From a virus: a stretch of 28,535 nucleotides of DNA. Both the position numbers and the translations under genes were made by a program. The notes beneath the pieces are model-generated. The model was not told the origin of the DNA. It did not search any database and worked only from the letters and a program-made list of their open reading frames with translations. Positions 2,587 to 2,970 of the stretch are shown in pieces. The DNA lies in the IMG/VR virus record IMGVR_UViG_3300025913_000091, positions 1-28,535 of that record, one strand, 5' to 3'. Within the stretch, counting starts at the first letter, position 1. Every line of letters begins with the position of its first letter.

Positions 2587-2970
2587 GTGGCGATCCTCGA
2601 GACATACGACCGAAAGGGTGGGGGCAGGACGCTGGCTCCGGCGATGCGGACCCGGTGGAGGACCCCCAAGATGGCACCGGGCACCTTCGTGGAGGACATG
2701 CGCGAGCCCAAGGGCGACCGCGGCTTCGGCACCGTCGTCGGAATCACTGAGGACGAGATCGCTGTCCTGTGGTCCTCGCCTCCCATGGCGTTGAAGAGGC
2801 GCCTCGATCCCAGTCGCCACAACCCGCTGGCGTCCGCAGAGGACTTCACGGTCTCCATCATCACCTCGAGCCACACACCCCAGACGCCCCAGCAGGACGC
2901 CGAGGACGTCGAGTACTTCCGGAAGAACCTGTTCGCGGCCCTCAAGGTGCCCAAAGAGATGCTGCGGTGA
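2587..2970 (+). CDS. small protein, VLWS-module family member D; C-terminal ~45 aa resemble a T4 gp20-type portal segment
   Basis: GTG start; module MAPGTFVED..GFGTVVGITEDEIAVLWSSPP; tail AEDF..EDVEYFRKNLFAALKVPKEML versus T4 gp20 TEDYW..[21 protein letters not shown] (recalled). Confidence 0.7.
   Translation: MAILETYDRKGGGRTLAPAMRTRWRTPKMAPGTFVEDMREPKGDRGFGTVVGITEDEIAVLWSSPPMALKRRLDPSRHNPLASAEDFTVSIITSSHTPQTPQQDAEDVEYFRKNLFAALKVPKEMLR

Follow-up and report, generated by a model that had tools for sequence, protein, structure and literature searches.

A small phage protein that joins a beta-barrel carrier to a homolog of a T4-type portal segment

The gene and its surroundings

The window, the whole stretch of 28,535 nucleotides analysed here (IMG/VR record IMGVR_UViG_3300025913_000091, positions 1 to 28,535), has a GC content of 56-72% and encodes GroEL, IF1, peptide deformylase, PRPP synthetase and GIY-YIG endonucleases, a gene content indicating that it is part of a large phage genome. 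The gene under study, ORF 2587-2970, belongs to an array of small genes of one family (Table 1), which keep the same order in four related contigs (L001, L104, L016 and L108). ORF 2587-2970 is a real, selectively maintained gene encoding a three-part protein, and its identity and architecture are nearly certain. The first-pass annotation had described an ORF that ends right after a portal motif and a next family member that starts by a GTGA overlap; both the stop codon and the GTG at 2967 were confirmed, and the tail sequence quoted there is exact. A promoter and terminator scan over positions 1-4200 found none.

Table 1. Coordinates of the family array and of the parts of ORF 2587-2970 in the window
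Feature	Position	Strand	Remarks
Family gene	222..539		
Family gene	1634..1915		
Family gene	1912..2133		
Shine-Dalgarno-like AAGGA	2573..2577	+	9 nt 5' of the GTG start; read from the sequence
ORF 2587-2970	2587..2970	+	GTG 2587 to TGA 2968-2970; 127 aa: beta-barrel carrier, linker, portal-derived tail
N-terminal small beta-barrel, aa 1-66	2587..2784	+	Strand ILETYD, PGxxV, GxVVG, VLWSxPP
Disordered, fast-evolving linker, aa 74-100	2806..2886	+	pLDDT ~58
Decayed remnant of the portal clip-domain strand, NPLASAEDFTVSI	2821..2859	+	Portal consensus MSMxEDYWLPRR; hhalign pairing
Copy of portal stem helix alpha7 and first tunnel-loop residues, QQDAEDVEYFRKNLFAALKVPKEML	2887..2964	+	T4 gp20 ~357-380; Pfam, PHROG, hhalign and the portal HMM made here
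Sibling gene, Gol-region fragment of gp23	2967..3452	+	GTGA overlap with ORF 2587-2970, translationally coupled

Codon comparison of ORF 2587-2970 with its ortholog in L001, a syntenic ENA contig, showed 12 synonymous changes and 1 amino-acid change in the barrel, and 3 synonymous changes and 1 conservative change (V to I) in the alpha7 tail (15 synonymous vs. 2 amino-acid-changing outside the linker). The linker (aa 67-101) has 23 amino-acid changes and 4 synonymous ones. Purifying selection acts on the barrel and alpha7 but not on the linker. A frameshift behind the divergence of the linker is ruled out by its indels, which are all in frame (3, 3 and 30 nt).

Several other small genes surround the array. 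Small paralogous families without a Pfam match are interleaved with it (570-962, 5803-6162 and 7494-7733; 972-1307 and 1309-1647; 3504-3860) and are kept in L016 (8510-8839, 8841-9185, 9186-9518 and 11190-11543). Downstream of the array lie three predicted secreted or lipoprotein-like Cys-rich proteins (3882-4778, ~4800-5257 and 5333-5770), all kept in L001 and L104, and two of the three share a C-terminal module, F(D/G)(Y/I)DRATxV(L/V)YIH(V/A)D.P..F.WTP.C. The GIY-YIG endonuclease genes of the window (8652-9614 and 17480-18055) lie in lower-GC patches, and a related contig carries several GIY-YIG/NUMOD3 genes and one HNH gene.

Homology of the tail to the T4-type portal

Pfam, PHROG, hhalign, a portal HMM and shuffled sequences agree that the tail of ORF 2587-2970 is homologous to a segment of the T4 portal protein gp20, as had been claimed; the gp20 segment quoted for that claim proved correct against the actual T4 sequence. 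Pfam PF07230 (Portal_T4) matched the ORF at E 0.0025 with 17.1 bits (aa 105-126 on profile positions 283-304), and PHROG phrog_213 (portal) matched the same residues at E 6.4e-4. The L001 ortholog matched Portal_T4 at E 9.8e-5 with 21.7 bits over aa 72-130 (profile positions 249-304), including the upstream ED anchor. Both scores are below the Portal_T4 gathering score of 22.9 bits, and the two matches cover the stated positions of a profile of 433. Of the two anchors first proposed for the resemblance, the downstream one (alpha7) is solid; the upstream EDF is degenerate in the window and was validated via orthologs only.

Alignment by hhalign of the window and L001 orthologs with ten real portals (from T4, RM378, OLIVR5, cyanophages, Ackermannviridae and Atu_ph07) gave a probability of 92% and E 6e-7, placing the tail at T4 gp20 322-380. 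A sibling class with the same N-domain gave a probability of 0.2% against the same ten portals; thus, the carrier domain is not the source of the portal match. With an HMM built from the ten portals, a single one of the 502 stop-to-stop frames of the window scores (2575-2967, 17.4 bits, with the runner-up at 0.9). Shuffling the whole ORF or the tail, 20,000 times each, never gave 17.4 bits, the maximum being 7.1 bits. A split or interrupted portal gene was considered and is ruled out, as the window has no second portal-like frame.

Comparison with individual portals gave a similar picture. A tblastn search with the 46-aa tail against 50,697 phage records returned 510 weak matches, about 450 of them in records that are T4-type by organism name, and among the matches listed those in T4-type phages all lie inside portal-annotated genes. 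Three metagenomic portals (L013, L014 and L015) read IEDVEYFRKKLF(M/K)(A/S)LN(V/I)P where the tail reads AEDVEYFRKNLFAALKVP, with 14 of 17 residues in common with L013 and L014. The tail is identical to the consensus of 67 real portal segments at 12 of 21 positions (real portals have a mean of 14.8 and a range of 9-19), and all near-invariant portal positions (D, Y, F, L, L, V and P) are present. It matches the portal of an unrelated 35% GC phage at 15 of 21 positions, as near as it is to its paralog in L016. By these comparisons the tail is a genuine homolog of the T4-type portal segment.

ORF 2587-2970 does not encode a portal. Its 127-aa product lacks the complete ~500-aa architecture of wing, stem (alpha5 and alpha7), clip and crown.

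Position of the segment in gp20 and predicted structure

In T4 gp20 the clip domain spans residues 279-358, the channel loop 350-359, stem helix alpha7 359-377 and the tunnel loop 374-398, and the stem helices are reported to be packed at the subunit interface (PMC4493910). Mapped on the gp20 structure, the segment consists of a clip-strand remnant, then stem helix alpha7, then the beginning of the tunnel loop. The well-conserved part of the tail (aa 102-127) represents alpha7 and the first tunnel-loop residues (T4 359-380), whereas the inner clip loop and the channel loop have been replaced by an unrelated, fast-evolving linker. The clip remnant (ASAEDF) was paired by hhalign with SMTEDYW of T4 gp20 (residues 329-335). 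In comparison with gp20 (PF07230, PMC4493910), the tail is homologous to residues ~322-380, which comprise the last clip strand, alpha7 and the tunnel-loop start. However, the ORF retains ~25-55 of ~520 residues, lacks the crown, wing, alpha5 and clip hairpin, and cannot form a portal with its fragment, which is fused to an unrelated beta-barrel.

The AF2 model of the window protein (145-sequence alignment) has 10-residue pLDDT block means above 90 at aa 1-10 and 31-70, with strands at aa 3-8, 20-22, 34-37, 47-53 and 57-64 and helices at 101-119 and 123-126. The barrel loop at aa 11-30 has a pLDDT of 64-75 in the window model and 87-90 in the L001 model. The model of the L001 ortholog otherwise shows the same picture, with a helix pLDDT of 82-90 and an unstructured clip strand. 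The C-terminal alpha7 homolog is an amphipathic helix. A Foldseek search of the AF2 model against PDB and BFVD gave no match below E 0.01; the best PDB matches (E > 0.01), to N-terminal barrels of F1/V1-ATPase subunits, are uninformative. A sequence search of the PDB with ORF 2587-2970 returned nothing relevant.

The carrier family and its tail classes

When 1.84 billion representative proteins were searched with an N-domain profile (alignment A3) at a cut-off of E<=1e-3, 232 clusters were found, nearly all of 60-250 aa, and the window's own cluster was recovered at 7.4e-10. The N-domain signature consists of the MxxLxTY strand, PGxxV, GxVV(A/G) and VLWSxxP (alignments A3, A4 and A6); G48 and W62 are invariant, and P31, G32, V35, S63 and P66 nearly so. 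The carrier domain has no Pfam or PHROG model and the family has no cultured representative. Isolated weak Pfam matches of the barrel occur in single members (Tudor_1_RapA, MSSS SH3, SMN_Tudor and SH3_12; E 6e-4 to 4e-3). The carrier family, of at least 232 clusters, is undescribed, and a literature search found no description of such carrier-displayed gp23/gp20 fragment proteins.

The tails fall into recurrent motif classes, one per protein (Table 2), with ~85 of 145 family representatives being gp23-type and ~14 portal-type. Pfam matched Gp23 in 50 of the 145 and Portal_T4 in 4, and no other structural Pfam family was matched among them. In this family one common handle carries, per protein, one block from a small set of the most conserved ones of T4-type gp23 or gp20. 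The description of the tail as the portal counterpart of capsid fragments in sibling ORFs holds, as sibling 2967-3452 is a Gp23 fragment (PF07068 at E 4e-11, phrog_138 at E 3.4e-9).

Table 2. Tail classes among the 145 family representatives
Tail class	Representatives
gp23 Gol block	43
gp23 C-terminal block (APYVP...PRKG..TRYG)	20
gp23 E-loop strand (SRKLKA.W)	~14
gp23 spine helix (EIxxEIDxEI)	~8
Portal clip strand and alpha7	5
Portal clip strand only	5
Portal alpha7 only	4
RTNE..R.LD.EL, no portal or Pfam match	4
Unclassified	43

A close parallel to these tails is the Gol region of T4 gp23 with the e14 Lit protease, in which a short motif of a capsid protein is sensed. Sibling 2967-3452 displays exactly the Gol capsid block, and the portal tail is an analogous conserved short motif detached from its protein. 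However, Gol sits in full-length gp23 and acts as a trigger, whereas the motifs here are separate genes on a carrier.

Some classes have further modules. Gol-class members (window 2967-3452 and, for example, P0034, P0051, P0058 and P0096) carry extra C-terminal modules, either the Arg/Pro-rich end PRRPGRP(P/T)RGPRKNP found in window 2967-3452 or the Cys/Trp/Arg-rich KRCxEGPW..R.FWR..RC...SSL.SW.RSR.GKK. A GKKKP end is frequent in portal clip-class members. Five members of the E-loop class (P0014, P0095, P0129, P0135 and P0071) have an extra conserved C-terminal domain of ~70 aa (...YES...EEVQ.LHEEGA.I.LH..G...V.RK.D..P...). The RTNE-type sibling is found at window 1912-2133, L001:261-497 and L016:9777-10004, with the tail SRT(N/D)E..R.LD.EL..I...L and no Pfam match. 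This class was considered as a third portal piece, which the hhalign probability of 0.2% rules out.

The ends of the family proteins bear on the proposal that the displayed peptide is a cargo-targeting signal, docking the small protein at the portal or inside the prohead for packaging and transfer to the next host. The strictly conserved N-terminal MxxL(K/R/E)TY loosely resembles the T4 capsid-targeting sequence MKTYQEFIAE, and many family members have basic C-termini. However, the resemblance amounts to three residues in a shifted position, and alpha7 and the gp23 core strands are buried intramolecular elements rather than known docking sites. We consider packaging of this kind very improbable.

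Portal pieces in relatives

Orthologs of ORF 2587-2970 are found in L001 and L104 (79% identity) and in L016 (JAHZTO010000113.1, a 142.6-kb NCBI MAG contig of 59% GC that is collinear with the window). Both portal pieces are in a single gene in the window and in L001. In L016 an alpha7-only gene, whose barrel is closest to that of the window, precedes one in which the clip strand is intact and alpha7 has diverged. In L108 (51% GC) a clip-only gene comes first and an alpha7-only gene next, and L106 has one alpha7-only gene. The intact clip, NPLxxDEDI(Y/F/W)IPV, occurs in L001, in L016 gene 10270-10644, in L108 gene 2426-2740 and in ~10 family representatives. The clip piece of L001 and the clip gene of L016 share the derived IPVGTPxE...F, which points to family lineages rather than repeated captures from portals. 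The alpha7 tail is kept at the protein level in L016, L106, L108 and other clusters, and all these tails end at the same point. Both portal motifs, split or fused, have thus been kept across the clade, with the clip strand decaying in the window.

This pattern of conservation weighs on the explanation that ORF 2587-2970 is chance resemblance or non-functional debris of a portal gene that was split or broken by recombination or homing endonucleases. GIY-YIG endonuclease genes are present in the window, and the clip-strand part is visibly decaying in its lineage, as such an origin would have it. However, the tail has been conserved with synonymous changes in L001 and at the protein level elsewhere with the same end point, and in every case an in-frame fusion joins it to the same carrier domain. 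In addition, none of the 40,000 shuffles reaches the observed score and no other frame of the window matches any portal part. The conservation pattern refutes chance or debris, which we regard as extremely improbable.

A different small ORF, L105:619-1164 (SDBV01207151.1, 1787 nt), also ends in a clip strand and alpha7, DEDFFIELKSGPIRFTKEEVEDVEYFRKKLCAALGVPAEFV. It is unrelated, matches Portal_T4 at E 1.9e-4, has no beta-barrel carrier and adjoins a beta-helix protein. Detached portal fragments may recur outside the carrier family.

Genomic setting of the arrays

The family is found in a clade of large soil phages carrying GroEL and IF1 genes, and the public runs with the window sequence comprise only a rhizosphere DNA metagenome and no RNA run. 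The arrays share one accessory region, with metallophosphatase, IF1, GroEL and AAA ATPase genes downstream and a chaperonin gene ~13 kb from the array in every relative examined. The family genes stand in tandem among small accessory genes, apart from structural genes, and the make-up of the array varies between relatives. Cultured phages gave no match to window positions 2000-4000 by megablast and distant matches only to the AAA ATPase of the window.

The relatives were searched for a portal gene of their own. The L016 contig, walked from 70 to 142 kb (72 kb), has no structural genes in that part, nor have the neighbourhoods of the portal-tail members L106, L107 and L108. A contig scan with the ten portals returned 80 ordinary T4-like portals, none of them from JAHZTO01. 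The T4-type auxiliaries encoded on L016 (denV, endonuclease VII, lysozyme, an RNase H-like 5'-3' exonuclease and seg-like GIY-YIG/NUMOD3 genes) indicate that the clade is probably T4-related. Just upstream of its array (L016:5104-7725) the same contig has a gene for a protein of 873 aa that contains the shoulder domain of major vault proteins (PF11978, faint Vault_3). Elsewhere it encodes a Ser/Thr kinase, Thg1 and two DUF4419 proteins and carries PEP-utilising and pyruvate-kinase-like genes.

Possible functions

We tentatively propose that ORF 2587-2970 encodes a molecular-mimicry bait peptide on a common handle, which would compete for a reader of the unassembled portal; we hold this to be possible, with doubts set out below. 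The reader might be a host sensor, the phage's own portal subunits or those of a rival phage. Portal assembly leaves alpha7 buried between subunits, as part of the lining of the DNA channel, so a free alpha7 would engage only partners of the unassembled portal. The bait would fill the site with which a host or rival-element factor reads the conserved motif on the monomeric portal, and a factor so occupied would be blunted in its sensing of phage structural proteins. Taken together, the genes of the array would cover every conserved capsid and portal motif. We count in support the variable composition of the array, which is usual for conflict genes, and the conservation of the barrel and alpha7 next to a free linker, with the near-invariant portal positions kept. 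Also in favour are the retention of both portal pieces in relatives and the place of the tandem arrays, apart from structural genes.

To our knowledge, DSAD1 and the tail tube protein have no sequence relationship. In the paper on DSR2, sensors are described as binding monomeric, unassembled structural proteins, DSR2 as binding the monomeric tail tube, and phage DSAD1 as blocking the DSR2 sensor via competition for the trigger site (PMC11087589). The mechanism proposed here is similar to that account, with a small phage protein set against a monomeric structural protein at the trigger site of a sensor. However, the accessible part of the same paper does not report a sequence relation of DSAD1 to the tail tube (PMC11087589), whereas the tail here is a literal motif copy and a putative competitor. 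Short capsid motifs are read by Lit and CapRel, and the portal is sensed by Avs4 and Avs11 (PMC13581612).

The main objection to a bait is that a peptide-activated sensor should be triggered, not blocked, by a displayed peptide. Lit, for one, is activated by the Gol peptide itself. In addition, we know of no defence sensor that reads alpha7 or the clip strand.

Most of the same data fit an assembly role equally well. The family proteins would then be assembly modulators or placeholder chaperones for the phage's own portal and capsid proteins, with alpha7 (and the clip strand in relatives) transiently filling a groove on unassembled gp20-type subunits. By analogy with donor-strand complementation by pilus chaperones, the subunits might thereby be kept soluble, or the formation of the dodecamer timed, and the barrel that the family has in common might dock to one shared partner, for example the phage GroEL. 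The PapD and FimC chaperones of chaperone-usher pili supply an unassembled subunit with a copy of the structural element it lacks, for as long as the real partner is absent; the family has no homology to them and differs in fold and cellular context, so that the parallel is a mechanistic analogy for the assembly role only. The tail is under the same residue constraints as a real alpha7, and the family's gp23 pieces are elements of the P-domain core that would pair in the native fold, judging from the tail classes. Deletion of the tunnel loop, which adjoins alpha7, perturbs the oligomer number of the T4 portal (PMC4493910). The clade also has its own chaperonin at the distance given above. T4 gp23 needs a dedicated co-chaperonin. 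However, the genes lie in an accessory array, and the structural module was not found within 70 kb of the array of a relative. An intramolecular element copied in trans should be a competitor of folding rather than an aid to it, and both the array composition and the linker evolve fast. Moreover, cultured T4-type phages assemble without such proteins, and the whole ORF had no tblastn match in the 50,697 phage records. We judge an assembly role unlikely, though it deserves serious consideration.

MicroProteins and dominant-negative truncated paralogs such as the eukaryotic Id and ZPR proteins keep an interaction element and titrate its partners. The family proteins are similarly small and have only one interaction element of a larger protein. 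However, in microProteins the element is a whole interaction domain, whereas here it is a single helix or strand on a foreign carrier in a multi-gene array. Fragments of this dominant-negative kind could be directed against co-infecting T4-type phages, poisoning the folding of the rivals' portal and capsid proteins and the assembly of their rings and lattices, with the most conserved blocks chosen for the broadest reach. Across all T4-type phages, the blocks found in the tails are the ones most strongly conserved. The alpha7 tail is as near to the portal of the unrelated 35% GC phage as to its own family paralog, and the accessory-gene array is a fitting setting. However, a clade with T4-type auxiliaries probably has T4-type structural proteins, which would be poisoned too, and no immunity mechanism is visible. 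Such a weapon seems to us quite improbable.

Returning to bait peptides, the reading can be extended from one gene to the clade. The clade might carry a bait arsenal, in which the barrel is the handle, each gene displays one motif, and four capsid and two portal motifs together neutralise motif-reading host sensors or rival elements; this wider proposal is doubtful, and we put it forward with greater reserve than that for the single gene. The baits would act before the real structural proteins are made. If true, the arsenal would be a systematic, modular self-mimicry counter-defence, which has not been described before.

Among the proteins of tailed phages, conservation is highest in the portal and the major capsid protein, both of which are prime targets of pattern-recognition immunity in bacteria. 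A widespread family that detaches exactly their most conserved blocks and puts each on a common carrier suggests that something in biology reads these short motifs, be it a sensor, a chaperone or a competitor. The family would be a natural map of the gp20 and gp23 peptides that matter as stand-alone ligands. Depending on the identity of the reader, it could point to a new class of self-mimicry counter-defence, or to a new principle of head assembly with placeholder elements supplied in trans.
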